Shown piece by piece: positions 12,342 through 34,879 of a stretch of 64,000 bases of DNA (positions within the stretch are counted from its first letter, which is position 1; each line of letters begins with the position of its first letter). The notes beneath the pieces were generated by a model. It did no database searches. It worked only from the letters and a program-made list of their open reading frames with translations, and had not been told where the DNA came from. The position numbers and the translations under genes were made by a program. The DNA is taken from sequence record NC_100371.1; one strand, given 5' to 3'. The stretch comes from a phage.

Positions 12342-15300
12342 TTAGTCGTGAGACTCGTTCCAAGGTCCCTGGAAGCTTGAGTTAGAACGACTAACGATCA
12401 CAGTGGGACAGGAGATTGTGACACCTGTCACGCTAGACGTTGACCACGGTGTGTAAATCTCGATAACAATGTCTATAGTTTGTTCACCCAGACCTGTTAT
12501 CCCTACCGCACACATGCCGTTGTTGTCGTTAAAATACTTCTTGCCAGCAAGGATCTGATGACCAGCTATCCATGCATTCAGCTGGGAGCTGGCAAGAGTA
12601 CCATTCAGTTTAAAGAAGAATGTTACGTTCTTACCCTGACCTGAAACGTTATCTACGTATCTCCACCTCCAACGGCAAACCCTTTGCTGGGAGTTATATA
12701 CTGGAGCACAATCTCCGTAAGTCCTGTGTGCAACGATTGCACCTTCGAACTGGTTAGCACGGATAACGGAAGCTTCTACACGTCCACGGAATGTACCTCC
12801 TGTTGCATCTATGGTCCCTCTAAAGCTACCGTTGTTGGCATAAACATCCCCACGGAAGGTACCACTGGTGGCGTTAACTGCCCCTGTGAAGTTACCTGCA
12901 CTAGCGTTAATGTTACCTTTCACCCACACATCCATAAACTGGGCGTGCCCGTTCTTGTTAATATACCAACCGTATTTGTGGTACCCATTGCCATCGTAGT
13001 TGTTTGACGAAATTTCTTGCGCGATCTTGGCAGAAGAGATCGTGCCGTTCTCTATAAAAGCGTCTTTCAAGAACGCTTGGTTGTTCTTGATTGCGAAAGC
13101 AAGGGTTGCTGTCCCATTGCCCGGGTTGTATACCGCAAAGTTGTTTGCGCTAACCATGAAATATGACTGAACTTGGCCTCCAGAGCCTTCCATGCCTAAC
13201 TGGATACCTGCCACATACTTATTCCCTGCGGAGTCTACCTGTATTTTTGTGCCCCATTGAGCATTTACTTTGCCCTCTAAGTCGGTCACAGCCTTAGATG
13301 TTGTAGCCACTGCAGCTCTGAGCTCTGACACATCCCCAACATCATCAATGATCTCCTGCTTAGCAACAGCAAGTTCTTGACGAATAGCTGACGCTGTGCC
13401 GTTAATAAGATCCACGGTTGCTTTGTTGGTATCGGAAATTGTAGCATCCAGAGCTGTCTTTGTGGAGGTCAGTTTACCATCTAAATCCTTAATCGCCTGT
13501 TTGTTGGTAGAAATCTCCCCACGTGCAGAGGTTATCTGCTCTGACAGTGCAGAGGTTTTCTGATTCAACAAATCGGTGGTGGCCTTGTTGGTATTGGCAA
13601 TCAAGGTATTGAGATCAGTTTTTGCGGTAGTTATCTTACCATCAAGGGTGGTATAGTTTTTAGATACCGTCGCGTTTGTCTGACTAATCTTTTGATCCAG
13701 GGTCTCAGAGGTCTTGTTCAAAAGATCCACTGTCGCTTTGTTGGTGCTCAGGATGCTTGCATCAAGTTCCGTTCTCTGGGTGTTGATCTTGCCATCCAGA
13801 GTTTTATCTCCGGCAAGGTATCCGCTCTCCACACCATCTATTTGTTCTACCAACTCCCCTTTGGCTGCAACCAATTTCTCGTCTAAAGCCTCTGTCTTTT
13901 TGTTCAGAAGATCAGTGGTTGCTTTATTGGTTGTCTCGATCAGGGATGCCAGTCTTCCACTTTCAGTGTTCAGATCGTTGGTGAACTTGTTCTGTGCAGC
14001 AACAAGTTTCCTATCCAGAGCTGTGATATTTCCATTGACATCCTCAAACTTCTGAGTTGTCTCTGTAACTACCGCACCTATCCTATCTCCAAGTTGTTGG
14101 AATGCCTCATCTACCCTTCCGTCCATGTACTTGTTAAGCTCTGTGACACGATTTTCAACCTCCTCGATAGAGGAATCTAAAGTGCTCATCAACTCTTTAT
14201 AAGTTTCTGTCTTTTTAAATTCAGCATCTATCTGAGGCATCAAATCTTCAATAGAGGTGTAGCAGCGTGCAGCGCATTCTACAAACTGAGAACTACCAAA
14301 AGCGTTTGTGGTTCGAATATACCAATAATAAATCTTATCGTTCTGCAGACCTTCAGATGTCCAAGTTGAACCAACACCCATACGGGTGGCTTTTGAAGTA
14401 ACGGTTGCATCACTTGTGTCCGGCAACCTTGTCATACCAGATGTCCAAAAATCATACTGGGTGCTTACACTTGCTAAGTCCCTGCTGTGCGGAATCAAGG
14501 TGATAGCAAAGTATCCCTGCTTAACTTCTACAGAAACAGGAGCTTCAGGTGCTTGAATGTTGAACTCGCAGTAGGCTTCTGGAGATACACCACCTTTATA
14601 AGATGTTGCAACCACGGTTGCTGTGTATGACCCTTTGGTCAATCCTTCTACGCGGACAAACTGCTCGACTGTTTGTGCTGTCCAAATAATCTCTCCGTTC
14701 TTTCTTACCTGCACAATATTTTGAGCATAAGTTCCAACGTTGTCCCAAGCCAAAACACCATGAGTTACTTCCCCAGCTTGAAGAACAGAGTATCTGAAGT
14801 TTTGCGGTTGAGCTACGCCGGACGGGGATATCGGAATATCCACATCTCCAGAATCCGGAAGTTGCCCTGTGGCATCATTCCACTCTTTAGCATCTTGACG
14901 GAGTTTTACCTTGACACCGCCCTTTTTGGTGAACTCCCATTCAAGAACCCTCATTTCTTGGCCCACTATACCAATACTTGGAAGGTCCATCGTAACGTAA
15001 CGCCCAGGCTTAAATTTAAAACCCCGCATATTGCAGGTTACTTCAATAATCCTGCCAGCTCTGGCACGTCTTAAGAATATTGCGGAAACACGCTGAGCCT
15101 GATAAGGACTGGTAACAAAACGATAATCTATATCAATTATCTTTCTTTCTCCGTCCTTCTCTACCCATTCAGGTACGAACACCGACGGGAAGTCTGTTTC
15201 AGAATACCCTTTGGTTGGACTGGTGAATCTTCCGGTTATTGTGTTTGATCTTTTGTCGAAGGAGGCTTCAGGATAGATCTTAACCTCACCGCAAACACAG

Positions 15301-16181
15301 TCCTCACTCAGTGTCATTGTTGCCGGGCCATAGTATGCACCTACCAGTAGACCATATTTGCCAGCCACATAGCTAAGGTCTGCACCACAAGCCTTCAGCA
15401 TCTCTGCCATAATACTTGCTGGTGCTTCGTCCATGTCGAACTCGCCATTAATGGTGTAACGGCGCTCACTGGTTCCGTCCGCGTTTTTTACAGCCTCGTC
15501 GCATATGTTGGCAGCTTCCTTGAAGGACTCCCAGTTGATGGTTTCGTCAGGACATTTAAGGTACGTTCTTAGATAGTCCAGAATCACCAAGGCAGCGTTA
15601 TTGGTATACATCTCTTTACTGATACGAGGATCATAACATTTTTTACCAACCTTGACAAGTGTAACGTTTGGCAACCCAAAAGGAAACTTGTTAGGGTCAA
15701 ACTTAAAGCTGGCACGTAGCCAACTGATACCTCTACCTATCATGTCTGGTGACCACGAAGGGCAGTGTGTTCCCATGAAAGGATCAGAGGTTTTCCTGTC
15801 GTTATGTAACTCCCACGATACCAAATCCCCATACGAGGAAATAGGATTACCGTCGATAAGTATATCTTCTATACCTTCCAAGGGATGATTGGCAAGAACA
15901 ATAGCACAATGAAGGGTTCTGTCCCTGTCCTGCTCCAAAAACGCAAGCAACCCAGATGTGCGTGTCTTCCCATACACTACAGAGCAAGGTGCAGCAGAAG
16001 ATCTGAGAAGTTTTTGTCTATCTTGCTGACTCCTGTAAGATTTGTTTCCTTCGAAAATCTTATCCAGGGTTCTGGTGGTAACAGTGTTCAGGCTGTCAGC
16101 CAGAGCTGCCTTGGATGCGTTCCAGTCATAGCTCGAAGATCTTGCAGAAGCAACGATGTTATCAATCATTGCAATTGGCAT
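12342..16181 (-). CDS. central tail fibre / host specificity protein, lambda J-like (1279 aa)
   Basis: Segments KQGYFAITLIPH, YYWYIRTTNAFGSSQFVE and VAGIQLGMEG...FMVSANNFAVYNPGNG resemble the fibronectin-type region and C-terminal part of lambda gpJ as I recall it; size fits. Confidence 0.55.
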   Translation of the reverse strand: MPIAMIDNIVASARSSSYDWNASKAALADSLNTVTTRTLDKIFEGNKSYRSQQDRQKLLRSSAAPCSVVYGKTRTSGLLAFLEQDRDRTLHCAIVLANHPLEGIEDILIDGNPISSYGDLVSWELHNDRKTSDPFMGTHCPSWSPDMIGRGISWLRASFKFDPNKFPFGLPNVTLVKVGKKCYDPRISKEMYTNNAALVILDYLRTYLKCPDETINWESFKEAANICDEAVKNADGTSERRYTINGEFDMDEAPASIMAEMLKACGADLSYVAGKYGLLVGAYYGPATMTLSEDCVCGEVKIYPEASFDKRSNTITGRFTSPTKGYSETDFPSVFVPEWVEKDGERKIIDIDYRFVTSPYQAQRVSAIFLRRARAGRIIEVTCNMRGFKFKPGRYVTMDLPSIGIVGQEMRVLEWEFTKKGGVKVKLRQDAKEWNDATGQLPDSGDVDIPISPSGVAQPQNFRYSVLQAGEVTHGVLAWDNVGTYAQNIVQVRKNGEIIWTAQTVEQFVRVEGLTKGSYTATVVATSYKGGVSPEAYCEFNIQAPEAPVSVEVKQGYFAITLIPHSRDLASVSTQYDFWTSGMTRLPDTSDATVTSKATRMGVGSTWTSEGLQNDKIYYWYIRTTNAFGSSQFVECAARCYTSIEDLMPQIDAEFKKTETYKELMSTLDSSIEEVENRVTELNKYMDGRVDEAFQQLGDRIGAVVTETTQKFEDVNGNITALDRKLVAAQNKFTNDLNTESGRLASLIETTNKATTDLLNKKTEALDEKLVAAKGELVEQIDGVESGYLAGDKTLDGKINTQRTELDASILSTNKATVDLLNKTSETLDQKISQTNATVSKNYTTLDGKITTAKTDLNTLIANTNKATTDLLNQKTSALSEQITSARGEISTNKQAIKDLDGKLTSTKTALDATISDTNKATVDLINGTASAIRQELAVAKQEIIDDVGDVSELRAAVATTSKAVTDLEGKVNAQWGTKIQVDSAGNKYVAGIQLGMEGSGGQVQSYFMVSANNFAVYNPGNGTATLAFAIKNNQAFLKDAFIENGTISSAKIAQEISSNNYDGNGYHKYGWYINKNGHAQFMDVWVKGNINASAGNFTGAVNATSGTFRGDVYANNGSFRGTIDATGGTFRGRVEASVIRANQFEGAIVAHRTYGDCAPVYNSQQRVCRWRWRYVDNVSGQGKNVTFFFKLNGTLASSQLNAWIAGHQILAGKKYFNDNNGMCAVGITGLGEQTIDIVIEIYTPWSTSSVTGVTISCPTVIVSRSNSSFQGPWNESHD

Positions 16182-16618
16182 TAATACCTCCAGACATCAA
16201 CAACGATAGAATCTTTCATGTCGAACATAAAGATCCCTTTATCACCTTTCGCCCAAATCTGGTTGTTCCAGAACACACCAGCGGTTAGCCCGTTCAGACC
16301 TTTGAAAATAACAATATCACCACGCTGAACCTGTTTAGGAGTATCCAGTCGAGTCAAAAAGAGATCAAAAATAGTAGGCAGGTGTGTGGTTTTGAAACGA
16401 AGCATGCACCATCTCTTGCTTTCCAACTCTGTTTTATATGTTCCTTCAAAGTTAGAAATAAAATCTGTTCCGTATTGGGCATCAACACACTTAGCCGCAA
16501 AGGTGCAGCAATCGTGGAATCCCCATTCAAACGGGACGGTGGCTTCTTCGTCAAACACTTTCCACAATCTTTCTTGCCAGTCTACTAAACGAGGGTGTGT
16601 GCTCATTAAACCTCCCAA
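16181..16618 (-). CDS. tail tip assembly protein (145 aa), possible Cys/His peptidase-like
   Basis: Start overlaps J-like gene start region; contains FHDCCTF; placement like lambda I/K. Confidence 0.3.
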   Translation of the reverse strand: MGGLMSTHPRLVDWQERLWKVFDEEATVPFEWGFHDCCTFAAKCVDAQYGTDFISNFEGTYKTELESKRWCMLRFKTTHLPTIFDLFLTRLDTPKQVQRGDIVIFKGLNGLTAGVFWNNQIWAKGDKGIFMFDMKDSIVVDVWRY

Positions 16619-17172
16619 ATGATCGGGCGGCTTGCCACCTGATCCACATATTTAAAAAATCTGTCATTATCGTTTCTTGAGCTATGGCTTTCCTCTGTGT
16701 ATCGATAAGGAAAACCTCTTAACCAGCTGTTGAAGATGGAAGAGATGGATATAGACAAAGCACTATTCTCCCCTGTCTGAATAGCCATGTCTGTTATAAG
16801 GCCGTCAAACAAGCCATTAGTTGTAACAGGTAAACCATTCTCCATAGCGGTGATATATAACGTGGCACGGCAACCAGAATACTCCGTCTTCAGCAGATCA
16901 CCTACATACTTGGGATCAAACCCGTTCAATGTTGCTACCACAGATCCGAAGTTGGTGGCATCTTTCTCAGACACAGCAGTCAATGTTGCTGATCCACCTA
17001 TTCCTATAAAATGTTGCCCCTCAATCACCACAACACCAGTGCCTGAGCACACCCTGACAGTTCCTGTTGGCAGCTCTAGCTTTGCAGCAATTAAGATCTC
17101 AACACTATCAAGCTCTAGCTTTTCAAGAAATAAATTATCTAATGGCGCTCTTATCATCTTAGAAATCCTCAA
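16606..17172 (-). CDS. tail tip protein (188 aa)
   Basis: ORF overlapping neighbours in an M-L-K-I-J-like run; no motif recognised. Confidence 0.3.
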   Translation of the reverse strand: MRISKMIRAPLDNLFLEKLELDSVEILIAAKLELPTGTVRVCSGTGVVVIEGQHFIGIGGSATLTAVSEKDATNFGSVVATLNGFDPKYVGDLLKTEYSGCRATLYITAMENGLPVTTNGLFDGLITDMAIQTGENSALSISISSIFNSWLRGFPYRYTEESHSSRNDNDRFFKYVDQVASRPIIWEV

Positions 17173-17749
17173 AGAAGTTGATAACTATATTGTCACCTTT
17201 CTGCATAGCATCAACCTTTTGCTTAATCTTATAGAGATCCCTGATATGAAATCTACCCTTCGGAGATTGAGTTATTATCTTCATAGTATCTCCTGCGGCA
17301 ATAGGTTTCCTAAGTCTTGGTGATATGTTTATAACAGCTGCCCCCACACCATCACTTCGCACTGAGGATGTTACAACTTTCAACTCATCATTGACAGATA
17401 TTTTATCCCCAGCCCTGACTATATCTCTGTTCGGTTCCCAACCAACCGTCTTCAAAAAATCGTCATTACCAGTTGGTCCTAGAGCGATTGGCTCATTGGA
17501 AGTAACTGAATGACCATAGGCCTTGATAAGAAAAATGTTTCCATCTTTGTAAACCTGATCAACAAAACTTTTAAGCTCCAATAGCTGGGACTCACTTATA
17601 TTGGAAACCGTCAAAGTTCCTTTCCAGTTGGGCGTGGCATAGGTTACTTTTTGCGTCTTACCTGTAAACGGGCTTTTAAACGTAACAATATCTGCCAGCA
17701 ACTCCAATCTAATATCTGGAAGATATCTAGGTCTTTCCCATAAAAACAT
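17159..17749 (-). CDS. minor tail protein (196 aa)
   Basis: ORF in tail-tip run; size resembles lambda gpL-class proteins; weak. Confidence 0.3.
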   Translation of the reverse strand: MFLWERPRYLPDIRLELLADIVTFKSPFTGKTQKVTYATPNWKGTLTVSNISESQLLELKSFVDQVYKDGNIFLIKAYGHSVTSNEPIALGPTGNDDFLKTVGWEPNRDIVRAGDKISVNDELKVVTSSVRSDGVGAAVINISPRLRKPIAAGDTMKIITQSPKGRFHIRDLYKIKQKVDAMQKGDNIVINFFEDF

Positions 17750-17810
17750 TATGCCTCCAGGTTAAACAATTATGATAGTTATTTTACCAGATTTTAAGTT
17801 AATACGCAAT

Positions 17811-17841
17811 ACAAACAAAAAGCCCTCGCCGAAGCGAGGGC
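17811..17841 (-). terminator. intrinsic terminator (minus strand)
   Basis: GCCCUCGC-UUCG-GCGAGGGC hairpin followed by UUUUUGUUUG on minus strand, just downstream of 17855..18187. Confidence 0.6.
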
Positions 17842-17854
17842 AATACTTTATACT

Positions 17855-18187
17855 TTAAAGTGCTTCCAAGGTAGATACTGATGGGTCGAACATGTTCAAC
17901 CTTATCGGATCTACAATTTTTCCGCTTTTAGAGATGATATTTTCTGCATCTTCGTCCAGAGCCAGAACGTTGACATAAAACAATTTACTTTTCTCGCAAA
18001 CTGGGTAGACAACCATGTTGCCAAACTCATCCTCGGCCTCATAAGTGTCTTCAGTTTCTGTGTAAATGAACCCGACAACCTCTACAAGAAGGGTGTTTTG
18101 CAACACCTCATTCTCGTAAAAGCCGATTTCGTCCATGAAACCGTTAAAATCCTCCCTACCAGTAAACCCAAGGGTAAAAGTATTCAT
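17855..18187 (-). CDS. minor tail protein (110 aa)
   Basis: Small acidic ORF overlapping stop of the 1479-aa gene; size like lambda gpM. Confidence 0.3.
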   Translation of the reverse strand: MNTFTLGFTGREDFNGFMDEIGFYENEVLQNTLLVEVVGFIYTETEDTYEAEDEFGNMVVYPVCEKSKLFYVNVLALDEDAENIISKSGKIVDPIRLNMFDPSVSTLEAL

Positions 18188-21100
18188 TATTCAACACTCT
18201 CCATCATAAGCTGGGTGTCGGTCAATGCAGAGTTCCAAACTCTTACATCTTTAATATGACCAAACAAATGTCTTTCACCTGTCGCCGTTTGACCTCCGAG
18301 ACGGATGAGAGCGCCTCCTGCCAGGAATTCCCAAGAAGATTGCGTTTCCGTACTCACCAATCCGTTAGCAAAAGAGCAGGTTTTACCGTCATCTTTTATC
18401 CTGAACCCAATTTTCAATTTACGTGTTTTAGCCATCTCATAGACACGTCTGTTTGAACCGCCAATATCACAATATGGATAACCATCTTCTGCAATATTTG
18501 CTGCAGAGCCAAATCCCATGATAAATGCAGCACCGTATTGGTGGCCCTCTGTATCAATAACTCTAGGAGCTGCGTTAGGAGCTTTTCCCCAACCTCTCCA
18601 GTTGGCATCCACCGTAGCGGCGATGGTGAACGGTCTAGGTGCTAAATTATCAGTCATTGGGAATTTACAAAGGTCTGCTGCCCTAGTCACTGGTGAAGAC
18701 CCTGTAGGGATAAACGAGGACTCACAAGATCCTAACTCGAACTGAGGTATTGCGACGTCAACCCAATCCCCTACGGCATGTTGAGAACCATCCGGTGGGG
18801 CAATCTGGAACTGGCACCCAATATTCATGTCAGAGTCCACTGCCTCAAACGTAGCAACAACTCTTATCCAAGCAGGTCCGGCTGTTTGCCATCTCTCAGC
18901 TTTTACTTTAATTCTCCCAGCTGCAACACCTGTTGTTTTAACTTCAAGTGTTGACAGGTTAACATAGGCATCACCTTGGAATACTGTGGTGGATCCGTTA
19001 TACATGTCAAATCTTACACGCAGTCTCTGGTGAGCTTTACCACCTCTTGCAATAATAGACCCAGTACAAAATTTCTCAGCACCTGTTACATCTGCACCAC
19101 GGGTGGCTGGAACTGTAGCCAGGTTTAACGCTGTTGTTTCTACACCGGATACGTTGCTTACTGTAAATCTTGCACCTTTTGTGCCGTTGGTGTTTGTTAC
19201 AGTGTTACCGACCGTAATCTGTGACTGGGCTCCCCATTTGCTCGGATCTTCACTGTTAAGCATCAGATTTGTCCTTTGACCTTCAATGAGCAGACCATCT
19301 CTTTCGAAACGTGGTTGGTTTGCCTGTGCAACAGCCATGACACCGCGCTTAGTGAAATAGGTTGCGGTAGAAGGTCTGGAGAAGATCATCTCCCCCTCAC
19401 CTAACACAGGTTTCAGGTTAGAGGTTAAAGGTAGCCACAGATCTGGCATAACTGGGGCAGTTGTACTTTCTGGGAAGCTAGTTCTCTTCCAAGGGCTCCA
19501 GTTCATTCCACTGCCAGTGTTATTATAATACCTTTCCCACGTTCCACCAAGATACATTTTATATATCTGGACACACCCTGTACCCTCGTTGGCAGAGTTT
19601 CTAAGCACGATAAGCGTACCAGCCATCTGCTGTCCTGGTGGGTAGTGTCTCTCCGCTGTGGCGTTGGCATTTGCCTCTTGATGGTAAATACCTTCGCGAT
19701 CCGCTTTGTAATCGTTAAGGTCGCTAGTTCCCAACCCTTGTCCACGGTGCTGAATAACTTTGTTCCACGCTCTGTGGTTACCCTGCTCTATGGAACGGGT
19801 GTACAGCTGATCTAAACGACCTGCCATCTGGAAAGCATAGTTTCCAGAAAATGCCACAGACAACCCACCAACAACCATTGAACCTTCAGGCCCGTTGACG
19901 TTGCCAGCCAGTATTTTGGACGGATTATTATTTCCGAACTGGTTGTTCCAGTCTGCACCTGTGTGGCATACAAAACCACCTGGGGCCGAGAAAGTACCGT
20001 CTTTGTTGAAATTGTAGAATCTGTGAGCTGTGCCAACAACATCGCGAACAATAACTTGACCCGCTTCTGGAGTAGATCTGAACTCTGCCTGACCTTTGAG
20101 ACCAGCACCATTGCCGCATTTAGAGGTAAATGTGCCGTTAGTCAGATCCTCTGTCCCATCTGATGCACACTGGAATCCTGCATTAGAGAATAACGCCTTT
20201 CTAGGACTGCTGTAGCACAAATAGTCAATACCGTCTGCCCATAGCTCGACTTTCGGCATGTTCATTTTGCTCATCACTGCATAGCGTTCAGCAGTGCCTA
20301 TATAGTGCCACTGTGTGCCGCCGCCAGTGTAGAACCCAGAAGTACCTTTGAAGTCAACAATAGGTCTGGTGTTTGTATTGTTATCTCCAAGAACAGCAAG
20401 ATTCAAGTCTGCCGACTGGAGAGGTGAAACGAACTTAACACCGTCCTGATTGTTTGTTACAGAGCCGACCTGATAATCTTGCTCTCTGGTAAACACTTCG
20501 ACAACATTTCTACTTGCGTATATGCTAACAGGGAAAGCACGAGCCTCTACATAGAAAGCAACATACTCTTGTTTACCCCTTGTTGGAGCAACCATCCCAA
20601 GAATTGCTTTTTCATTCTGGTAGAAATTTACTACCCCGTAGAAAGAGTCTCCTCTGTCTGTCCAACCACCAGTTCTATAGTGACACTGCAAGGTGGCGCA
20701 GTTCATAGGGTCACCGCCAGATGAAGATCTGGTAACTATGGTAATATCAGTGCCAGTTGCTGGAGCATAGTACGGATCTGTTCTGACGATGATCGGGTAG
20801 TATTTCCCATCTTCCATTCCTGCGGTTCTTGGCAGTGTTAAGAAGTCTTTTACACCTGCTGCTATAGGAACTTTGAACAGATTCTGAGCATCTGCTAAAG
20901 TTGTAGCCCCAGTGCCGCCTGCGGCTTGAGGTAAAGGTTCCCACTTGGCCTTCCGGTTGTTATACACACCCCATTCCAGAGTGCCGTTACCGGATTCATC
21001 CATCCCTCCATCCCAAACGACCATTTTTGCGGCTTTCTTGGATCCCCAGAACCCTCTTTCTGCTCCTGAACTACGGATCCATTCCCCAAGTCCCCAGTTT

Positions 21101-22626: not shown

Positions 22627-22640
22627 TCTTTCTCCTGAAA

Positions 22641-22657
22641 GGGGGCAAACAGCCCCC
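22641..22657 (-). terminator. hairpin (attenuator-like) immediately upstream of RBS of 1479-aa fibre gene
   Basis: GGGGGC-UGUUU-GCCCCC on minus strand followed by UUUCAGGAGAAAGAAUG (RBS and start of 18187..22626). Confidence 0.4.
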
Positions 22658-22663
22658 TATATG

Positions 22664-25261: not shown

Positions 25262-25262
25262 C

Positions 25263-26669: not shown

Positions 26670-27347
26670 TTAGTGCGGTCCACTTGTCTCGCCATCAGGG
26701 CAAGAGTGGGTATGACCTTTATATTCTGCATAGAATGAGTCCAAATCCACACCAGCAGCCGTTATAATTCTACCTGATGGGTCTATTGTGGCACCATTCA
26801 TTCTGATATTTCCATCCACAGCAGCTCGTAAATTGGCAGCCCCGTTGGTGAAAGAAAACTCCCCGCTACTGTCGCACCGTAATGTTCCACCAGGTGTTTG
26901 AAGCTCAAAATCACCAGAAGGTGTCAGCTTAAAATAAACCCTATCATTCCATAACTCCACATTATCAGGATCGATCTGTAAAGCGTTAGAGTCTGAATGA
27001 ACAGAGGTTATTGCCCACCCTGGAAACAGGCCGTGAGTTTGTTGATCATCATTATTGTTTTCATTTCTCTCTGAAAACTGCAATCCTACAACATCACCAG
27101 CCTTAATAGGAAGTGTTAACCTTGCCTTCCCGCTGTTTGCAGACATCACCTGGATTGGCACATCATAGATAAGAGGGTATCTCTCAACATCCCCGTCATC
27201 AAACGTGGTTTCAGCTATTGGCTGCACTGCTGCGGAGGGGATACTGTAATCTACACTGACAACTCTGGCCCTGATACTGGTGTGGTAGTCCCTCATTATT
27301 TTTTCTATAAAGGATCTTACAGCAGCATCTTTCCTATTAATTGCCAT
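26670..27347 (-). CDS. baseplate central spike-like protein (225 aa)
   Basis: Size and position like gpV/gp5-type spikes; C-terminus YKGHTHSCPDGETSGPH has an HxH motif as found at spike tips. Confidence 0.4.
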   Translation of the reverse strand: MAINRKDAAVRSFIEKIMRDYHTSIRARVVSVDYSIPSAAVQPIAETTFDDGDVERYPLIYDVPIQVMSANSGKARLTLPIKAGDVVGLQFSERNENNNDDQQTHGLFPGWAITSVHSDSNALQIDPDNVELWNDRVYFKLTPSGDFELQTPGGTLRCDSSGEFSFTNGAANLRAAVDGNIRMNGATIDPSGRIITAAGVDLDSFYAEYKGHTHSCPDGETSGPH

Positions 27348-28348
27348 TATACCTCCTCAGTTTTGTCAACAACTCCACCCACTGTTTCCCCAAGGCCAAG
27401 CTCTGTAGTGTAATCACCACCTTCTATGGTGCCCTTATGATGGACTGTGATCACCTTATAGAAGCCTGTGTATTGCCTACTTTTAAGATAAATGGTGGAC
27501 TCTGGGAGGATAGCCCCGTTAAGACATGTGGTTACAGTAAGACCAACATCCTCTCTCGGGTTTTTCTTTTTCTTCTTACTTGTGCCACCTTTCGCAGCAG
27601 CTTTAGCTTTTCGTTTTTTAGCAGGTTCTGGGTTTTTAGGTGTGGGTGAACCGTGCATCCCAGACTCTGCACTTATTTCAAACACAGAGTCCTTGAACCT
27701 TTTTCCAACCTTGGTCCAATATAAAGCCCCGTCCTGAACGCTAAATGTTGAGTTTGTCAGCCTTGCAAACCTGCGCAGGTTCTCTGCGGTGTTTCCGGAG
27801 AAAGCCATAGAGTATTGCAAAGTTTGGTTTCCAAAACCAACAACCCTCCCTTTTGGCAAGTTCATATCCTTCAGCAGGTCATTAAGCACAGAGTTCAGAG
27901 GTGTACCTTTCTGATAAGATCTTGTGCTTTGGCACTTAATGATGTTCTCAGTGCCATCCCCAAAGATGAACTTAGTTTTTCTGGTAGGGCCTTCCCATCT
28001 GTCCTCAACAAACTCTACAGTTCCGGAGAATATCAACTGGTTCTCATTATCATAGCCAGCCTCAAACATAACTGCAAGAGCATCAGCTTGATGCATATCT
28101 AGATAGTTAACTGTATCGTCAGACAGGTTGTAAACTGTCACATAGCCTTTGTTTGGCTCTTTGGTATTGTCCTTTTGTATGTCAAACTCTATATTGGCAG
28201 CACCAGTGTCCGAGCTAATCTCATAAACTCCGGAATCACTTTCTCCTTTCTTTTCAACAGATTTCGGGATATTGGTTTTTGATTTACCACCATGCTCTAC
28301 AGGGCGACCAAATAACAATCGCCATGTTCTACGTCTGTACTCTGCCAT
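27347..28348 (-). CDS. baseplate hub-like protein (333 aa) with Lys-rich linker
   Basis: ORF with PAKKRKAKAAAKGGTSKKKKKNP segment; position after tape measure as in P2/Mu-type baseplates. Confidence 0.3.
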   Translation of the reverse strand: MAEYRRRTWRLLFGRPVEHGGKSKTNIPKSVEKKGESDSGVYEISSDTGAANIEFDIQKDNTKEPNKGYVTVYNLSDDTVNYLDMHQADALAVMFEAGYDNENQLIFSGTVEFVEDRWEGPTRKTKFIFGDGTENIIKCQSTRSYQKGTPLNSVLNDLLKDMNLPKGRVVGFGNQTLQYSMAFSGNTAENLRRFARLTNSTFSVQDGALYWTKVGKRFKDSVFEISAESGMHGSPTPKNPEPAKKRKAKAAAKGGTSKKKKKNPREDVGLTVTTCLNGAILPESTIYLKSRQYTGFYKVITVHHKGTIEGGDYTTELGLGETVGGVVDKTEEV

Positions 28349-28728
28349 TATTCTAACCCTTGCTGTTCCTTGTAAAGATCAACTGGAGTACCGTATACAA
28401 GTTGCAACTCAGATCTTGCTCCAAGGTTGTATCTTCCAACTCTCCCCCAATATTGATCGTCTTTAAACGACAGCGCCATCAATCTACCTTTCGGTAAATC
28501 GTCTCTGTAATGCAGTCCGTCTAGAATATCTTGACAAGCTGTTACTTTTCTGGTTACTAAAGGGCTGTCACCTACCGGACCAAGAGATAACCACCAGGAC
28601 TCATCCCTCTCATTCCATTGCATACGCATTTCATACGTCTCATTGTCTAAAACAACACGCATGGTTTGATCAGGAAAGCCGTCAATGTCCCACACAAAGG
28701 TGATTATGCACCAATCTTTAAGCTCCAT
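28348..28728 (-). CDS. baseplate/tail assembly protein (126 aa)
   Basis: Small Trp-rich ORF with start overlapping stop of downstream gene. Confidence 0.3.
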   Translation of the reverse strand: MELKDWCIITFVWDIDGFPDQTMRVVLDNETYEMRMQWNERDESWWLSLGPVGDSPLVTRKVTACQDILDGLHYRDDLPKGRLMALSFKDDQYWGRVGRYNLGARSELQLVYGTPVDLYKEQQGLE

Positions 28729-28739
28729 TGCACGCCCCC

Positions 28740-29651
28740 TTATTTTCCGTTAACTTTGTTGTAGTTTCCCTGCTCAGATGGGACTATGGTAGAAGGTCTT
28801 CCATATTCCTGATAGTACCAATCCGCAGCAGATTGGGTGACACCGTTTTCATCTGTCCACATCATAGATTTGTATGGCTGCCACTCTTCTGCGGCATTTG
28901 TGGATGCAGTGTCTGCAAATGCCCCTGTGTCCCTCTTGTTACCTACGTTACTGCCATTCTTACAGTCGTTGACAGCACCTTTTTGCTGGGTCTTGCCTAC
29001 TTTCTTAGGGTTGCTGTATACAGTTGCATTAACAACCTTGTTCAAGTAGAATGTGCGGAACTCTGTAAGTTCTACATCAAACACCATCGCAGCACCTTCA
29101 CCAACAGACTTGTTGGCAGAAAGGCTGGTTATGATGTAGTTCTCAAGGAGTCTTTCCTCGGTAACCAAAGAAACCAACTGGCGCTTATTAATGATCTCAG
29201 TCAAAGCCTCCAGTGCAGCGCCTGGTCGCATAGATGCTGCAGGATTTTTAGAGTCAGTATTCCTGTCAATGTAGTTTTGCTCATAGATTATATGTGGTGA
29301 TGTATTTACCCTACCAGTAAAAGAAAATACACCATCTTTAATTACAGCGTGGTCTGACAGAGTAGATTTATCTTCCACCGCAAACCCAGTTTTATCAACA
29401 GAATGTTTGAAAGAGTAGTTCTCAACCTGATCGAAGATAATGGCAAGATCGTTAGTAAAGTTTTTACCCTTCATCTCCATATTGCGACCACCATAGTTAA
29501 GACCGCTGACAAACATAGTGTACTTTACATCGCTTTCAGTTTGCTGCTCTGCCTTTTCAGCCTTTGGAGATTTAACCTCTTGAGGCTTGTACAGGTCTTT
29601 TTCATCAACTATATTGCTTGGCATAACCTCTCCAGGACACTCCGATACCAT
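28740..29651 (-). CDS. tail protein downstream of tape measure (303 aa)
   Basis: ORF immediately after tape measure gene; function from position only. Confidence 0.3.
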   Translation of the reverse strand: MVSECPGEVMPSNIVDEKDLYKPQEVKSPKAEKAEQQTESDVKYTMFVSGLNYGGRNMEMKGKNFTNDLAIIFDQVENYSFKHSVDKTGFAVEDKSTLSDHAVIKDGVFSFTGRVNTSPHIIYEQNYIDRNTDSKNPAASMRPGAALEALTEIINKRQLVSLVTEERLLENYIITSLSANKSVGEGAAMVFDVELTEFRTFYLNKVVNATVYSNPKKVGKTQQKGAVNDCKNGSNVGNKRDTGAFADTASTNAAEEWQPYKSMMWTDENGVTQSAADWYYQEYGRPSTIVPSEQGNYNKVNGK

Positions 29652-29730: not shown

Positions 29731-32067
29731 TTACCAAAGATCTGTTGACATAAAGTTAATATCTTTGTTGTTCTCCCACTCAAGTTTTGCATCAATTATT
29801 TTGTTAAACTCGCCCTCATTTATTGAAATAGTGATTTTCCCATCACTGATCTCTAAAGGTAGCATTTCCATAGTTCTTAATTGAGAAGCAAAACCAGGGC
29901 CACCTGGCAACGGAAGAGTACCGCCAAGTAAGGTGTCCAAAGGATCAACAAACCCGTTACCTCCCGATATGATATCTTTGCGAATCATATCGCTGATAGT
30001 ATCCAGTTGCTGATTTCTCTCACTCAGTGGGTTGAAACGGTCATTAAATAACTCTCCGGCGCTCAATATTGTACCGATAATACCCAGCTTACCAAGCAGG
30101 CCAACTTTACCACCAGGTGTCTTGAGGCCACCTCCACCTTTTCCTGCCGCGCCACCACCACCAGATCCTTCTGCAGTAGCTGCACCTGCTGCTCCAGCTG
30201 CGCCTCTTATAGAGCTAAGGAATTTAAAGGTTTTTACAAGCATAGATGCCATGACAAAACCTTTTGTTAGGGCGTTGACGACCAGCATGATGGCAGCAGC
30301 AAAACCTGCCCATTTAGCATAACTAAAGGTGTCATGAAGCTCTTCAGAATATTCCTTCGTCTTAGCTGTTATGAATCCCCATTTAATCCCCCATTCAAGG
30401 AAAAACAGGCGGATCTTGACTATGGTATTGTTTAGTTCACCAACTACCCAGTTGAGGCCTCTCACAAACCCGCTAACAAAATCACCAGAGGCATCCCACA
30501 CAAATTGCAAAGTCTCACCAGTGCGAATCAGTGTATAATAGAACTCTGTTAGTTCGTCAGCCCAACGGGTGAACAGTTTCTGACGGGACAGTTCGATGAA
30601 GGTTTTCAGCCTGTTTTCTGCCAACACGTTAGACTTCTGCATTCTCTCATAACCAGCTGCAGATGCCTCGTTCATGTACTTAGCCACATACTTCATGATC
30701 TTGGCTGTTTTAACCTCGCCTTTCTTCATCATGTCCATGAACTGATCCATGGAGAGTTCAGAAAGACCAAAAGCCTCTTTGGTGGCCTTGATAAAAGGTT
30801 CATATGCCCCAGGTAACGCTTCAGCAAGCTGTTGCTTAAGTTCTTCGGACATTACCTGCCCTTTACCGAGCATTTGCTGGATTGCCATAATACCGCGCTG
30901 GTATTTTACCTCATCAGCACCATAAGCAGCAGCATACTGGGAGTATGCAGAGAATAGCTCATGGACCTCTTGGTTTGTCATCTGGTTTTTGGCGTTTACC
31001 GCCATCTGGGCGTAACCTTGAAGACCAGATTTGAGATCAAAACCAAGACGCATAGCCTCTTGCTGGACAAACGCAACCTCACTGTTGGCTTTGTTTGGAT
31101 CTCCAGTAACAGCAGTAAGAGCAGCACTTGCCCCCTCCATCATGTGACCAGATCTGTTCACAGCAGTAAATCCAGAGAAAGCCGTATACGCAGCTGTTGC
31201 ATTAATAACAGATCTACGTAAGTCTCTCATGGCATCGCCTAGTGTAAGCGTTTGGCTGGTGGCGCTTTTAAATCCAGACTGCAGCGCTGACAGGTGGGCG
31301 TTAAAGGTTGACTTTTTCATCTCTCCGCGAGCAAACCTAGACTCTAACTCTGAGTATCCAGGCAAGCTTCCACGGAATCCGGCTCCATACTTGGCAGAAA
31401 GTCTTATTGCAGAGTTGTAGAGGTGGGTTCTCCTTGCCTCACGATCCGACATAAGCCTATTATCCATACCAGCTTTACTGTCCCTTCTTAGCTGTCTATG
31501 ATAACGATTCATAGCTGCTGTCTGAGCTTTCACAAGGTTAGGGTCGGAAGCCACACCACCCATATTAGGGTTACCGGGGATATACTTGAAAGATTTGGCA
31601 TTAGCCAAAACTCTTGCCTTAGGTGCCTTATAACCGCCGTAAGACACTGGTGCAGATTTGGCAACCTTTTTGGCCTCTTTAGCTTGCTGCTGGTAGAACT
31701 TACGCATCCTAGCCATTTCTGGATTTTTAGCGGTAAGATTACCTACAGCTTGTTTACGTCTCGCGTTCTCCCTACGTTCTATTGCAGCCCTTACTGCAGC
31801 CTCTTTCTTGGCTTGTGTTACGCTCTCCCTGTGCAGTTTAGCATTTGCCTGAGATTGCTGTCTGGCAACCCGCTGCATTGTTTGCTGGGTTTTAACAGCC
31901 ACTGCCTGCCATCTACTCATTGGGTTGGCTGAGTTAAAATCCTCGCCCAGTTTCCTGAACTCCCTCCCAATACTGCGAATTTTCTCTACAGCTTTTTTGT
32001 AGGAGGAGTTCTCTATCTCAAAGCCAATCTTGTTGACTGTTGTGGCAACTATTTTGTTTGTAGCCAT
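29731..32067 (-). CDS. tail tape measure protein (778 aa)
   Basis: Alpha-helical Ala/Gln/Lys-rich N-terminal half, hydrophobic segments, Gly-rich tract (GAAGAAGAATAEGSGGGGAAGKGGGG); preceded by chaperone pair. Confidence 0.7.
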   Translation of the reverse strand: MATNKIVATTVNKIGFEIENSSYKKAVEKIRSIGREFRKLGEDFNSANPMSRWQAVAVKTQQTMQRVARQQSQANAKLHRESVTQAKKEAAVRAAIERRENARRKQAVGNLTAKNPEMARMRKFYQQQAKEAKKVAKSAPVSYGGYKAPKARVLANAKSFKYIPGNPNMGGVASDPNLVKAQTAAMNRYHRQLRRDSKAGMDNRLMSDREARRTHLYNSAIRLSAKYGAGFRGSLPGYSELESRFARGEMKKSTFNAHLSALQSGFKSATSQTLTLGDAMRDLRRSVINATAAYTAFSGFTAVNRSGHMMEGASAALTAVTGDPNKANSEVAFVQQEAMRLGFDLKSGLQGYAQMAVNAKNQMTNQEVHELFSAYSQYAAAYGADEVKYQRGIMAIQQMLGKGQVMSEELKQQLAEALPGAYEPFIKATKEAFGLSELSMDQFMDMMKKGEVKTAKIMKYVAKYMNEASAAGYERMQKSNVLAENRLKTFIELSRQKLFTRWADELTEFYYTLIRTGETLQFVWDASGDFVSGFVRGLNWVVGELNNTIVKIRLFFLEWGIKWGFITAKTKEYSEELHDTFSYAKWAGFAAAIMLVVNALTKGFVMASMLVKTFKFLSSIRGAAGAAGAATAEGSGGGGAAGKGGGGLKTPGGKVGLLGKLGIIGTILSAGELFNDRFNPLSERNQQLDTISDMIRKDIISGGNGFVDPLDTLLGGTLPLPGGPGFASQLRTMEMLPLEISDGKITISINEGEFNKIIDAKLEWENNKDINFMSTDLW

Positions 32068-32855: not shown

Positions 32856-33018
32856 TTTATAGCATCCTTATTAGTCATGTTGTGCACCATATTTGTGTAT
32901 TTTACCATGATTATAATGCATTGTCAATTTAACCTTTCAAGCAATCCAAAAATGGTGTGTCAAAACCATAAAAGCAAAAAGCCCCACCCGAAGGTGAGGC
33001 TTATACTAAAGTGTGCCC

Positions 33019-33492
33019 TTAGATAATGCCTGCAAGACCTGCGAGGCCAGTGAGAGCACCAGTGATGTTGTCACGGTTGAGCCATGCATCCAGAATACCG
33101 ATATCCCAGTCCAGCTGACCTACTTCGGTTCCGTAAGTGAGGTCAGGCTGTTTTTGGATCCAACCGATTGTAGCAATACCAGGACCCTGGCTACCTTCCA
33201 GCAGAACCGGGAAGAATACCAGACCAGTAATAGATGCCTGTTTCTGCCAGTCAGAAAGGTAAGCGTTCCATACAGAAGTGTTCTGCAAAGACACAGTCAT
33301 AACACCGGATTGGTTACGAGACAGGGCCGCAGACATTTCGCCATCCACACCAACATGAGGGTAGATGTTGTCTTCGTTTCTTGAAACAACGATCTTGGTG
33401 TCAGCAGCGAAGCCAGTGACACGCTGCTGCATCAGGTACAGTTTGACCTTTTTAGGGTCATAAGCATAAGGAGTTAAAATTTGAGTTTCCAT
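33019..33492 (-). CDS. tail tube-like protein (157 aa)
   Basis: Small ORF directly downstream of sheath-like gene and upstream of chaperones/tape measure; size typical of tube proteins. Confidence 0.45.
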   Translation of the reverse strand: METQILTPYAYDPKKVKLYLMQQRVTGFAADTKIVVSRNEDNIYPHVGVDGEMSAALSRNQSGVMTVSLQNTSVWNAYLSDWQKQASITGLVFFPVLLEGSQGPGIATIGWIQKQPDLTYGTEVGQLDWDIGILDAWLNRDNITGALTGLAGLAGII

Positions 33493-33502
33493 CTAGTCTT
33501 CC

Positions 33503-34879
33503 TTATTCAGTCATTGCAACAGCATTGGTGGATTTAGAACCAACTTTGTCCAGAAGGACGTTGATCCGGATACGAACGAAGTGCAGGGCGTTGTTATACA
33601 CCAGTTCTACTTTCACACCTTCCAGAACACGAGCAGCCAACTGATTGGTTGGGATCTCTGCACGTTTAGGAACTGTGATAATCGGGTCGTAGAACACATT
33701 GTTGTCTTCGTCAAAACCTGTCAGGATCGCGCCATTCTTAATGCCAGTATTGATCGGGTTGTTCATCAGAACAGACTTGATAACCGGAAGATCATCATCA
33801 GACATCTTCATGCTTAAACCCATATTGGAGCGGCGATGCATGTACCCAAACATGGATTCTTCAGATCTGAACTTGATCCAGTGTGCAAAACGAATAGCGT
33901 CTGCATACTGACCTGAAGCACACTTACCTTCCCAGAAAGCGCCAACACCGTTAATCATTCTGTAGAAGTTAACGTGGTTTTCCCAAATCGCCATACGCTG
34001 AGTTAAAGTCAGAGATGGTGCAATCACACCCGGCATCTGTTTTAAGTGCAAGCTGTCACCGTAGGACGGATCGTTGGATGCCATAGCACCTATGATACCA
34101 CCCTCCGGGAAGTCCTTATCTGCACGAGGATCGTACATGCCAACACTGTCATATTGTGCAGCTTTCAGTTTGGTAGCGATGTTGCTATCTTTGCCAGTCA
34201 CATCTTCTGCAGTAGAGTAGACGTGCAGCTTGTAGTTGGCCTGAGCCCACTTAGCACATGCTTCAATGTCGGTGTGGTCTTCATGGCACAGGAAGTACCA
34301 ATTGTCCCGCTCAGCATTGATCTTATCAACTACTGTAGAAGGTTTTTCAGAATTGGCGATATTCTTGATTGTATAGTTACCAGTATGATAACCAACAGTG
34401 CAGTTACCAGTGATGGTGATAACACCTTCTTCAGCCTCTACAGTGATACCGTCCAAATTATCATCTGCTTCGATTTTAGTCTTCATTGACTCTGCAATCT
34501 GAGTTGCACCTGTTCCACCAGAGATAGGCACTATCAGAGAGGTATTGTAGCCACCTTTTGCAATAGTCATTACGACATCGGTATCGGCTGCGGCAGCAAT
34601 ACCTTTAAAGTCTACAGTGGTTTTTTCTTTGGCCTGTCTGCCGATCATAACATATTGTGGAGGGAATACACCACCAAAAGCTTTTGCTGCAAACTCATAC
34701 GCTGCAGAGCCTTGTGCGAAACCATCTTCCACCATCTGATCCAGCTCCGCATATACGCGAGCTCGCTCAGTAAAGTTGTTGTGGATAGCGATGAACAGGG
34801 GAGTTTCGAAACCTACAGTGTCAATAGGTTGGGTTCCGAGGTTAACTGTAACATCTACCACTTTATCTAAATATGGCAT
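33503..34879 (-). CDS. tail sheath-like protein (458 aa)
   Basis: Size and position (neck genes, then this, then tube-like gene, chaperones, tape measure) match contractile-tail gene order; no motif confirmation. Confidence 0.45.
   Translation of the reverse strand: MPYLDKVVDVTVNLGTQPIDTVGFETPLFIAIHNNFTERARVYAELDQMVEDGFAQGSAAYEFAAKAFGGVFPPQYVMIGRQAKEKTTVDFKGIAAAADTDVVMTIAKGGYNTSLIVPISGGTGATQIAESMKTKIEADDNLDGITVEAEEGVITITGNCTVGYHTGNYTIKNIANSEKPSTVVDKINAERDNWYFLCHEDHTDIEACAKWAQANYKLHVYSTAEDVTGKDSNIATKLKAAQYDSVGMYDPRADKDFPEGGIIGAMASNDPSYGDSLHLKQMPGVIAPSLTLTQRMAIWENHVNFYRMINGVGAFWEGKCASGQYADAIRFAHWIKFRSEESMFGYMHRRSNMGLSMKMSDDDLPVIKSVLMNNPINTGIKNGAILTGFDEDNNVFYDPIITVPKRAEIPTNQLAARVLEGVKVELVYNNALHFVRIRINVLLDKVGSKSTNAVAMTE

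Follow-up and report, generated by a model that had tools for sequence, protein, structure and literature searches.

The DNA analysed here is a stretch of 64,000 nucleotides from record NC_100371.1 (the window), which belongs to a Vequintavirus (rV5-like) myophage of E. coli. Phage B9-1 (Vequintavirus) shares 97% nucleotide identity with it across 22.5 kb, many Vequintavirus genomes share 93-97% across the full 22.5 kb, and EmilHeitz and MaxBurger match the window gene by gene. The proteins of Bas54 are 96-99% identical to those of the window. The tail genes named in a first-pass annotation of this DNA are present on the minus strand, at the positions that it gave.

Contractile tail and baseplate genes

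The following features surround the region of interest:

33503..34879, minus strand: tail sheath, 458 aa (DUF3383, 9e-12; PHROG 205 'tail sheath', 2e-118)
33019..33492, minus strand: tail tube (KPP10_Orf10)
29731..32067, minus strand: tape measure protein, TMP (TMP_3)
26670..29651, minus strand: true axial complex of four genes (Pfam/PHROG; positions from phi92/phiTE cryo-EM), namely the next four lines
28740..29651, minus strand: tube initiator (Dit_like)
28348..28728, minus strand: plug/spacer (Pam3_gp18)
27347..28348, minus strand: hub (phi92/phiTE orthologue)
26670..27347, minus strand: central spike (phi92/phiTE orthologue)
25941..26657, minus strand: sheath initiator, gp25-like (PHROG and phi92/phiTE orthology)
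17855..25931, minus strand: fibre genes of 222, 865 and 1479 aa and a 110-aa ORF, outside the cassette described below
10048..12236, minus strand: wedge 1 (496 aa, Baseplate_J) and wedge 2 (228 aa), directly downstream of the cassette

The window encodes an ordinary contractile tail whose simple baseplate is of the Pam3/Mu/phi92 type. The sheath had been proposed from its size, with a profile comparison as the check. The profiles support it: besides PHROG 205, the solved phiTE sheath 9cb9_A (9cb9_A/9cba) matches 33503..34879 at E 1e-144, and phi92 gp130 matches the 458-aa ORF at 9e-48. The phiTE homologue has been solved in both the extended and the contracted state. The tube-sized ORF is the tube gene, and the tape measure gene was also correctly recognised. 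In rV5, of the same genus, the tail is contractile by electron microscopy (PMC3606486). The idea of a contractile tail that carries a siphovirus-type J module was therefore right, and its alternative, a siphovirus with an elaborate tip, is ruled out by the true sheath.

The genes earlier described as baseplate- and spike-like form a full contractile baseplate by Pfam and PHROG, with sheath initiator, Baseplate_J/gp6-like wedge, hub and central spike. The tube initiator, plug, hub, spike, sheath initiator and two wedges each have a phi92/phiTE orthologue (gp135-139 and gp145/146 in phi92), with identities of about 26-35% to phi92 and 40-57% to phiTE, and the places of these counterparts in the baseplate are fixed by cryo-EM. 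The tube initiator-hub-spike proteins are essential in Bas54, and the same set is resolved on the tail axis in phi92 and phiTE.

The siphovirus-type tail-tip cassette

Positions 12342..17749 are one siphovirus-type tail-tip cassette, composed of a distal tail protein (Dit), a gpL-like protein, a gpK-like protein and a hub-J fusion. Its genes and boundaries are:

17822..17841, minus strand: intrinsic terminator, GCCCTCGC-TTCG-GCGAGGGC followed by a T run; 5' boundary of the cassette
17769..17797, minus strand: putative promoter-like site, TTAAAA-17-CATAAT (consensus match only)
17159..17749, minus strand: gene 1, siphovirus-type Dit, 196 aa (fold, PHROG 1302)
16606..17172, minus strand: gene 2, gpL-like hub protein, 188 aa (Foldseek)
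16181..16618, minus strand: gene 3, DUF6950, gpK-like with probable NlpC/P60-type fold, 145 aa (Pfam, 1e-33)
12342..16181, minus strand: gene 4, J-like protein, 1279 aa (Pfam, lambda J and T5 pb3 profile)
12314..12335, minus strand: intrinsic terminator, AAGCCCCGC-TTCG-GCGGGGTTT followed by a T run; 3' boundary of the cassette
12270..12298, minus strand: promoter-like site, TTGACT-17-TAAAAT with TG, predicted for the wedge gene

The cassette occupies a variable slot with the sheath-initiator gene on one side and the wedge genes on the other, accessory fibre and tip genes being inserted downstream of the former. The terminator at 17822..17841 ends the upstream fibre genes, a GGAGG ribosome-binding site precedes the Dit gene, and the terminator at 12314..12335 lies directly after the J stop codon. 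A separate, terminator-bounded transcription unit is thus predicted. The wedge gene that lies downstream is essential, yet transposon insertions in J are viable, and this fits a wedge gene read from a promoter of its own. The cassette starts about 12 kb past the end of the TMP gene, with nine other genes between them, and fails to show the direct adjacency to and co-transcription with TMP expected of a siphovirus module, a terminator flanking it on each side. The distance between the end of TMP and the start of the J-like gene is about 13.5 kb, not about 10 kb as first estimated. The J-like gene itself had been reported, but the extent of the module was understated, since a whole cassette of Dit, hub, putative peptidase and J is present. 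Four small tail-tip-like ORFs had been placed before J. Three belong to the cassette (196, 188 and 145 aa); the fourth, the 110-aa ORF (17855..18187), belongs to the allele of the upstream 1479-aa fibre and is missing in cassette-bearing relatives with a different fibre allele.

The 196-aa protein matches PHROG 1302 'distal tail protein', and its AF2 model (pLDDT 86.5) finds pb9 of DT57C/T5 as best Foldseek match (8hqz_H, 2e-8; 7qg9_V, 4e-8; TM 0.6-0.66). The gpL-like gene yields 188 aa from the TTG at 17172 or 183 aa from the ATG at 17157, the start annotated in relatives. Its AF2 model is of moderate quality (pLDDT 75.9) and matches T5 pb3 (7zqp_b, 1e-6) and lambda gpL (8iyk_L, 4.8e-5), with further matches to JBD30 (8rk3_O), T1 (9l9p_J) and the RcGTA hub (6tba_7A); as modelled, the 188-aa protein has the tube-like fold of a gpL-type hub. 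Its aligned sequence has only two cysteines, and across the relatives no Cys column is invariant. The gpK-like protein is of 145 aa from a TTG start and 141 aa from the ATG at 16606. A DUF6950 profile built from 88 family representatives gave top PDB matches that are all NlpC/P60 endopeptidases, weak in score (MepS/Spr, E 0.009-0.013). The FExGxxDC and AQxGD motifs of the 145-aa protein align with lambda gpK, and Cys33 is invariant in the family. No conserved His was seen at the canonical catalytic position in the DUF6950 family profile and alignment.

The J-like protein contains the Pfam domains Ig_J, Ig_J_second and Phage_Tail_Tip and matches the lambda J chain 8iyk_J at 3.6e-28, in line with its first assignment. 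It joins a domain of baseplate-hub type to two Ig/FN3 domains, a variable-length coiled coil, a tip fibre like that of lambda J and a C-terminal domain. A profile of the N-terminal part finds the hub pb3 of T5/DT57C (E 1e-12 / 4e-13). The alignment with HK97 J reaches aa 1272 and the C-terminal domain is HK97 J-like; both this domain and the fibre tip are retained and conserved. By analogy with lambda and HK97, we infer that the J C-terminus would bind the receptor. A hydrophobic N-terminal segment is absent from the J-like protein, whose best 19-aa Kyte-Doolittle window is 0.31, against 1.85-2.31 in five siphovirus J homologues. This loss fits a tip that no longer needs to form a membrane conduit.

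Relatives, selection and host-dependent requirement

The genes that follow TMP in the Seuratvirus VogelGryff are colinear with the cassette: the first three are 32, 38 and 45% identical to the Dit, gpL-like and gpK-like proteins, and VogelGryff J is 54% identical over aa 48-721 of the J-like protein. The same order after TMP occurs in four more siphoviruses, so that the cassette abuts TMP in 5/5 siphovirus relatives examined, Seuratvirus-like and Vibrio siphoviruses among them. In IMG/VR, the L-like gene is found together with Dit-, K- and J-like genes in 77 of 80 loci, all on contigs of at most 81 kb except three Vequintavirus contigs. None of the tail loci of phi92, phiTE, SSE121, TH18, KPP-1 and A73 contains the cassette. 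Phage records with a wedge protein of at least 95% identity number 116, as do those with the J-like protein at 60% identity or above, and the cassette is confined to the genus Vequintavirus.

The four families are present in the Queuovirinae (Seuratvirus/Nonagvirus) and in Vibrio/Providencia siphoviruses in the order of the window and with similar sizes, the Queuovirinae-type module having proteins of about 195, 195, 135-145 and 880-1290 aa. The window differs in that its cassette is far from TMP, where it forms a separate unit with a terminator at each end among the baseplate and fibre genes of a myovirus operon, and in a J that lacks the hydrophobic segment and has a longer coiled coil of variable length. 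With the lambda tip (gpM, gpL, gpK, gpI, gpJ; 8IYK) the window shares the Ig and tip-fibre domains of J, the gpL fold in the 188-aa protein, and the gpK Cys and GD motifs in the 145-aa protein. However, a gpI equivalent is absent, the K-like gene being followed directly by the J-like gene without a fifth gene; with its two domains Dit belongs to the T5 pb9 type and not to the 109-aa gpM type, and hhalign of the window Dit with lambda gpM was not significant; the receptor-binding domain of the J-like protein resembles HK97, not lambda. The 188-aa protein also lacks the conserved cysteine cluster of lambda gpL. In lambda, this cluster binds iron-sulfur.

The T5/DT57C tip (7QG9, 7ZHJ, 8HQZ) provides the best Dit fold match (pb9) and the best J hub profile match (pb3), but it has hub pb3 and fibre pb4 as separate proteins plus the receptor-binding pb5, whereas in the window a single protein has hub, fibre and a probable receptor-binding end. 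Orthologous sheath, tube, axial set, sheath initiator, wedges and several fibres are found in phi92 (Justusliebigvirus) and phiTE (Certrevirus). In phi92 accessory fibre genes fill the same slot between sheath initiator and wedge, and in phiTE these two genes are adjacent; the tip cassette is found in neither. In the RcGTA baseplate, four genes follow the same logic in the same order, namely Dit g12, hub g13, peptidase g14 and megatron g15. In its solved structure (6TBA), the 292-aa hub 6tba_7A matches the window protein of 188 aa, the only one compared by fold. The RcGTA particle, however, is non-contractile and its four proteins are the axial tip.

The cassette is under strong purifying selection, with dN/dS of 0.01-0.10, the range of the essential wedge gene, and every relative examined has the four ORFs intact. 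In published HIDEN-SEQ transposon data for Bas54 on K-12, bas54_0028, 0030 and 0031 were non-essential and 0029 was intermediate. Between K-12 and CFE311 the log2FC of bas54_0028 to 0031 was -6.4, -5.1, -5.3 and -6.4, with zero reads on CFE311 at the TA sites shown for bas54_0031, and bas54_0024 to 0027 rose (log2FC +3.7 to +6.5). Insertions in the cassette were tolerated on CFE303. The Bas54 cassette is thus dispensable on K-12 and CFE303 and indispensable on the uropathogenic isolate CFE311, where the neighbouring fibre set turns dispensable. Insertions in the Dit-, L- and K-like genes may act via polar effects on J, so the CFE311 requirement is attributable to the cassette and not gene by gene.

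Possible role of the cassette products

Most likely the products are an accessory host-range device and not the central tail tip. We consider it probable that a normal contractile tail has received a complete siphovirus tip cassette by insertion and uses it as an alternative receptor-binding device. The ancestor of the genus Vequintavirus would have gained all four genes at once, through recombination with a siphovirus that infected the same cell. The products may still assemble a tip-like complex of Dit hexamer, gpL-like trimer and J trimer that no longer has its own tube or tape measure protein, and the virion would carry this complex as a second means of binding receptors. The conserved tip at the C-terminus of J would bind a receptor important where the other fibres find no ligand, and binding would act through the usual trigger, a baseplate rearrangement that sets off sheath contraction. 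The complex appears independent of the 222/865/1272-aa fibre branch, because this branch can be lost on a host that requires J. As for its form, we lean slightly towards a 'tail tip without a tail', in which Dit ring and hub sit on the baseplate, peripherally or over the spike, as a switchable, host-specific adsorption organelle that would work beside the conventional fibres.

Data on virions come from other members of the group. The 1279-aa orthologue of the J-like protein in rV5, gp37, was found in purified virions with thin mass spectrometry coverage (4.2%, one strong tryptic peptide); 19 proteins were detected and the three small cassette proteins are not among these. Cryo-EM of Bas49 and Bas54 resolved three fibres only and did not locate the J-like protein. 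A Dit hexamer lacks an obvious docking partner off the tail axis, a point against an accessory device. The window encodes a single tube, which belongs to the contractile tail, and the end of this tube is held by the separate tube initiator, hub and spike.

The first-pass annotation had called J a central fibre. On this reading the Dit/hub complex would sit on the tail axis, either around the central spike as a sleeve or docked beneath it, which would make the virion a contractile tail whose spike is topped by an axial fibre in the style of lambda. In its favour, the natural docking faces of a tip complex (top of the Dit ring, lumen of the hub) are made for a six-/three-fold axis. Low coverage of the J-like protein, among the least covered of the rV5 virion proteins, fits 3 copies rather than 18, and no data fix a peripheral site. 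We nevertheless regard this position as unlikely: a complete and essential tube initiator-hub-spike set already holds the axis, the spike tip is free in phi92 and phiTE, whose baseplate proteins are orthologous, and no tip complex of about 0.6 MDa on the axis is described for the reconstructed baseplates of Bas49 and Bas54. The cassette is also a separate transcription unit, dispensable on K-12 and absent from phi92, phiTE and four further relatives. Conditional essentiality alone cannot separate adsorption from later steps, and with an NlpC/P60-like protein in the cassette the complex could be needed after adsorption to cross capsule, outer membrane or cell wall, for example through the K-like protein or a hub domain. 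Such a penetration aid is improbable, however, given that DUF6950 does not conserve the canonical catalytic His and that the membrane-type segment of siphovirus J is lost, while the fibre tip and C-terminal domain are kept; moreover, a fibre set that is dispensable exactly where J is essential looks like a switch of receptor binders.

That reciprocal behaviour likewise points to host recognition rather than to an intracellular, non-virion role that matters in CFE311, such as counter-defence or superinfection exclusion. CFE311 does impose defence-related conditional essentiality on other Bas54 genes, and the virion evidence for the J-like protein is weak, but all four proteins have structural tail-tip folds and gp37 peptides occur in purified rV5 virions, which leaves this role a very slim chance. 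Dispensability on K-12 and CFE303 would also suit an inert relic of an old siphovirus recombination; with intact ORFs in every relative, dN/dS like that of an essential gene and an absolute requirement on CFE311, this idea has virtually no likelihood. The dN/dS values and the CFE311 requirement refute an inert relic.

Exchange of tail modules is generally assumed to stay within one type of tail. In this case a whole siphovirus tip assembly has apparently crossed into a myovirus; it was kept by strong selection, and in Bas54 it decides the infection of a clinical uropathogenic strain, CFE311. A 'tail tip without a tail', if true, would be a receptor-binding apparatus new to structural work on myoviruses. 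Phages similar to rV5 are common candidates for therapy and biocontrol, and the self-contained, terminator-bounded cassette is a natural target for host-range engineering. The current labels of the four genes are inconsistent ('tail fiber', 'baseplate protein', 'cell wall hydrolase', 'lateral tail fiber with FN3 domain', 'tip attachment protein J') and hide the fact that they are one unit.

Contractile tail and the slot of the cassette

The phage is an rV5-like Vequintavirus of E. coli. All window genes from about 8 to 50 kb are on the minus strand, and a 22.5-kb span of this block has 97% identity to Escherichia phage B9-1 and 93-96% to more than 100 other Vequintavirus genomes. About 20 'Campylobacter phage' records (GenBank MG065635-MG065676, host Campylobacter jejuni) match the whole 22.5 kb at 94% identity; their host label looks doubtful. 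The GC skew flips from negative to positive near 51 kb (window about 50000..52000), which is consistent with a switch in transcription direction where the structural gene block ends.

A contractile tail was seen in rV5 by electron microscopy (PMC3606486). The first-pass annotation had made the tail type depend on whether the ORF at 33503..34879 encodes a sheath or a non-contractile major tail protein. The sheath call was borne out, since the profile matches are sheaths: PHROG 205 'tail sheath' (2e-118), phi92 gp130 (9e-48) and the phiTE sheath (9cb9_A/9cba, E 1e-144), the last with structures from both extended and contracted tails. Reading along the coding strand, the sheath gene is followed by genes for the tube, a pair of chaperones and the tape measure protein (TMP), and then by a Dit_like tube initiator, a Pam3_gp18 plug, hub, central spike and gp25-like sheath initiator. 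Two wedge proteins are encoded past the fibre genes. Orthologues of the tube initiator, plug, hub, spike, sheath initiator and wedges are found in phi92 (gp135-139, gp145/146) and phiTE, where their baseplate places were established by cryo-EM (PMC13450770; PMC11972413). The sheath matches, together with this baseplate set, predict a contractile tail for the phage of the window.

Between the fibre genes and the wedge genes there is a cassette of four genes, flanked on both sides by a strong terminator.

Features of the tail region (window coordinates, strand, description)
33503..34879, minus, tail sheath, 458 aa, Pfam DUF3383
17841..17822, minus, terminator with TTCG tetraloop flanking the cassette, promoter-like site next
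17159..17749, minus, Dit-like protein, 196 aa
16606..17172, minus, L-like protein, 188 aa
16181..16618, minus, K-like protein, 145 aa
12342..16181, minus, J-like protein, 1279 aa, with Ig_J, Ig_J_second and Phage_Tail_Tip domains
13240..14230, minus, variable coiled coil of J (aa about 650-980), length differing among Vequintavirus alleles
12335..12314, minus, terminator with TTCG tetraloop flanking the cassette, promoter-like site next

The sheath-initiator gene abuts the wedge gene in phiTE, TH18 and A73, and the slot between the two contains only fibre genes in phi92, SSE121 and KPP-1, so that the cassette is absent from the tail locus in all six relatives. Wedge proteins with at least 95% identity are encoded in exactly 116 phage records, and J-like proteins with at least 60% likewise in 116. 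These counts and the six relatives show the cassette to be a Vequintavirus-specific insertion in a slot of variable content.

Siphovirus-type tip genes in a contractile-tailed phage

The cassette is a complete siphovirus tip set: besides a Dit and two hub components, it encodes a K-like protein and a central fibre. It is a second tip set on top of the phage's own tube initiator, hub and spike. VogelGryff, a Seuratvirus siphovirus, has genes of 194, 194 and 144 aa directly after its TMP gene, followed by the J gene; the window ORFs of 196, 188 and 145 aa are colinear with these (32, 38 and 45% identity). Four more siphoviruses have this arrangement, with ORFs of about 195, 195 and 135 aa between TMP and J. 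An IMG/VR scan seeded with the L-like alignment gave 80 loci, all with the Dit-like gene and 77 with the K-like and J-like genes. Of these, only the three Vequintavirus contigs have the wedge gene as well. The other loci are on contigs of up to 81 kb, most having a TMP-sized ORF (700-1165 aa) among those immediately upstream. Unlike this siphovirus family, the window cassette does not adjoin the TMP gene. Four small tail-tip-like ORFs had been counted initially; the three above hold, whereas the fourth, of 110 aa, was rejected as a gpM-like tip protein, as it has no post-TMP counterpart and is missing from some relatives that keep the cassette.

The J-like protein matches the lambda J chains in the PDB (3.6e-28). 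Its nearest relatives outside Vequintavirus are siphovirus tail-tip J-like proteins, not myovirus ones: Seuratvirus SLUR76 and VogelGryff (identity about 53%, starting at residue 48), with Providencia and Vibrio siphoviruses next. A profile of residues 1-500 matches the baseplate hub pb3 of T5 (E 1e-12) and DT57C (4e-13), in agreement with the hub-like HHpred matches published in 2013 for rV5 gp37 (PMC3606486). Lenient Pfam/NCBIfam scans added only a sub-threshold Phage-tail_3 match in the N-terminus. The C-terminus can be aligned with HK97 J up to residue 1272, seven short of the last. At least three lengths of J occur in Vequintavirus (1199, 1279 and 1381 aa), differing only in the central coiled coil. 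Conservation is 98-100% in the hub and in the C-terminal 300 residues, so that the alleles vary in fibre reach but share hub and tip. In all five siphovirus J homologues compared, the protein starts with a segment hydrophobic enough for a membrane (hydropathy 1.85-2.31 in the best 19-residue window). In contrast to these members of its subfamily, Vequintavirus J has a polar N-terminus (0.31 for the best 19-residue window). This would be expected if the complex no longer serves as a DNA conduit, and fits a changed role.

The three small proteins were assigned by fold and profile. The AlphaFold2 model of the 196-aa protein, built from 40 diverse homologues (pLDDT 86.5), had as top Foldseek matches the pb9 distal tail protein of T5/DT57C (E 2e-8 to 4e-8, TM 0.6-0.66), followed by the JBD30, Chi and R4C Dits. 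The 188-aa model (pLDDT 75.9) matches T5 pb3, JBD30 chain O, lambda gpL, the T1 tail-tip protein 9l9p_J and the RcGTA hub. The 145-aa protein belongs to DUF6950 (1e-33), and with a profile of 88 representatives of this family the top PDB ranks are all NlpC/P60 endopeptidases, with E values no better than about 0.01. Lambda gpK can be aligned at the FExGxxDC and AQxGD motifs of the 145-aa protein. The Cys is invariant in the family but the canonical catalytic His is not conserved, hence the enzymatic activity is uncertain. Single-sequence PDB searches with the three proteins gave nothing useful, and with six-sequence profiles the DT57C Dit came first without significance (E 0.85), the other two proteins giving noise. 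A first word-indexed homologue search found only close relatives, and usable alignments required seeding with siphovirus homologue alignments. With hhalign, the Dit-like and L-like profiles gave no significant alignment to the single sequences of lambda gpM and gpL; the kinship of these two proteins to lambda therefore rests on fold, not on sequence. Mechanical ORF calls for 16606..17172 and 16181..16618 begin at an upstream TTG (188 and 145 aa), whereas relatives are annotated from the ATG at 17157 and 16606 (183 and 141 aa). With these ATG starts the genes adjoin as closely as is usual for co-translated tail genes.

Databases already list the phage and its genes and use the label 'tip attachment protein J', and a literature search found no paper pairing Vequintavirus with this label. 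In the searchable literature we did not find stated a complete siphovirus tip cassette colinear with Queuovirinae-type phages, its nature as a discrete genus-specific insertion, or the loss of the hydrophobic N-terminus in a myovirus J copy. The parts of the cassette are those of the known siphovirus tip complex; their context and use differ from that family's.

Host-dependent requirement of the cassette

The cassette is under purifying selection. Among four Vequintavirus genomes, dN/dS was 0.01-0.10 for all four genes, indistinguishable from that of the essential wedge gene. Function is seen most directly in public transposon-sequencing data for phage Bas54 (MaxBurger; bioRxiv 10.1101/2025.11.20.689424); its genes bas54_0028 to 0031 encode proteins with 96-99% identity to those of the cassette. 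On E. coli K-12 three of these genes are non-essential and one is intermediate, while the flanking baseplate genes are essential. On the uropathogenic isolate CFE311 the four genes are depleted relative to K-12 (log2FC -6.4, -5.1, -5.3 and -6.4; adjusted p reported as 0), and the bas54_0031 TA sites shown in the CFE311 sheet have zero reads at all. Insertions in the three upstream genes may act by polarity on J. In the same comparison bas54_0024 to 0027, encoding the sheath initiator, the 222-aa protein and two large fibres, are up (+3.7 to +6.5). The E. coli isolate CFE303 tolerates cassette insertions, as judged from per-site counts. The cassette is needed on the natural host CFE311 but on neither K-12 nor CFE303, and the adjacent fibre set shows the opposite pattern. 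The conditional essentiality is already in the preprint, where the four genes are not described as a tail-tip module (bioRxiv 10.1101/2025.11.20.689424).

The per-site counts were used for CFE303 because the sheet Data S6 of supplementary file 9, headed 'resampling_K-12_vs_CFE303', holds the CFE311 run: its console command and input file are those of CFE311, and its values are identical to rows further down the file, presumably sheet S7. The true CFE303 table seems absent from the supplement.

The sheath initiator gene bas54_0024, orthologue of 25941..26657 (238 aa), is essential on K-12 and tolerates insertions on CFE311, its mean read count rising from 0 to 92. At its C-terminus the window protein extends about 60 aa past the part alignable to phiTE and TH18, and in phiTE the long fibre is anchored by a helix formed by the C-terminus of the sheath initiator. 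By analogy, the tolerated insertions may remove only the anchor helix.

Probable place on the virion and fibre exchange

The products would assemble as in siphoviruses, with a Dit hexamer, an L-like trimer and a J trimer, and the tip complex would be carried on the virion. The rV5 gp37 (1279 aa) was detected in purified virions at a low coverage of 4.2% (PMC3606486), and the single strong tryptic peptide is from the hub domain. On hosts such as CFE311, the conserved C-terminus of J probably binds a decisive receptor; a role after adsorption is the less likely alternative. An inert relic is refuted by the low dN/dS and the conditional essentiality on CFE311.

The fibre branch of 222, 865 and 1272 aa is dispensable on CFE311, and therefore the complex cannot hang from it. 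The phi92, phiTE and Bas49/Bas54 cryo-EM papers give no location for the J-like protein; in the Bas49/Bas54 maps three fibres are assigned, but J is not. We favour a peripheral site, because the axis is taken by the essential hub and spike, no axial tip complex has been reported for Bas49/Bas54, and loss of the cassette leaves the virion unharmed. For the same reasons a complex on the tail axis seems unlikely, but we retain it, given that a Dit ring is made for an axis and that the low mass-spectrometry signal would suit one complex per virion. The siphovirus-type J module in a contractile tail proposed in the first-pass annotation thus stands, whereas its description as central is not supported, the axis already holding hub and spike.

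The 1479-aa fibre resembles the VogelGryff lateral tail fibre in its distal part, to which its C-terminal 420 aa (18193..19449) have 43% identity. The 110-aa ORF (17855..18187) weakly matches the small ORF after the VogelGryff fibre. This pair is allele-specific: isim, YN3 and MaxBurger have another fibre allele, lack the 110-aa ORF and keep the cassette. Apart from the cassette, the pair is thus another sign of exchange with this siphovirus group. The N-terminal anchor of the siphovirus lateral fibre, which might have explained docking, was sought in the window and not found; only the distal part and the small downstream ORF are present. The gene bas54_0041, encoding a large intimin-domain lateral fibre, shows partial depletion on CFE311 (log2FC -2.2). 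No other structural gene outside the cassette shifts in this direction, which makes the fibre a candidate partner or anchor.
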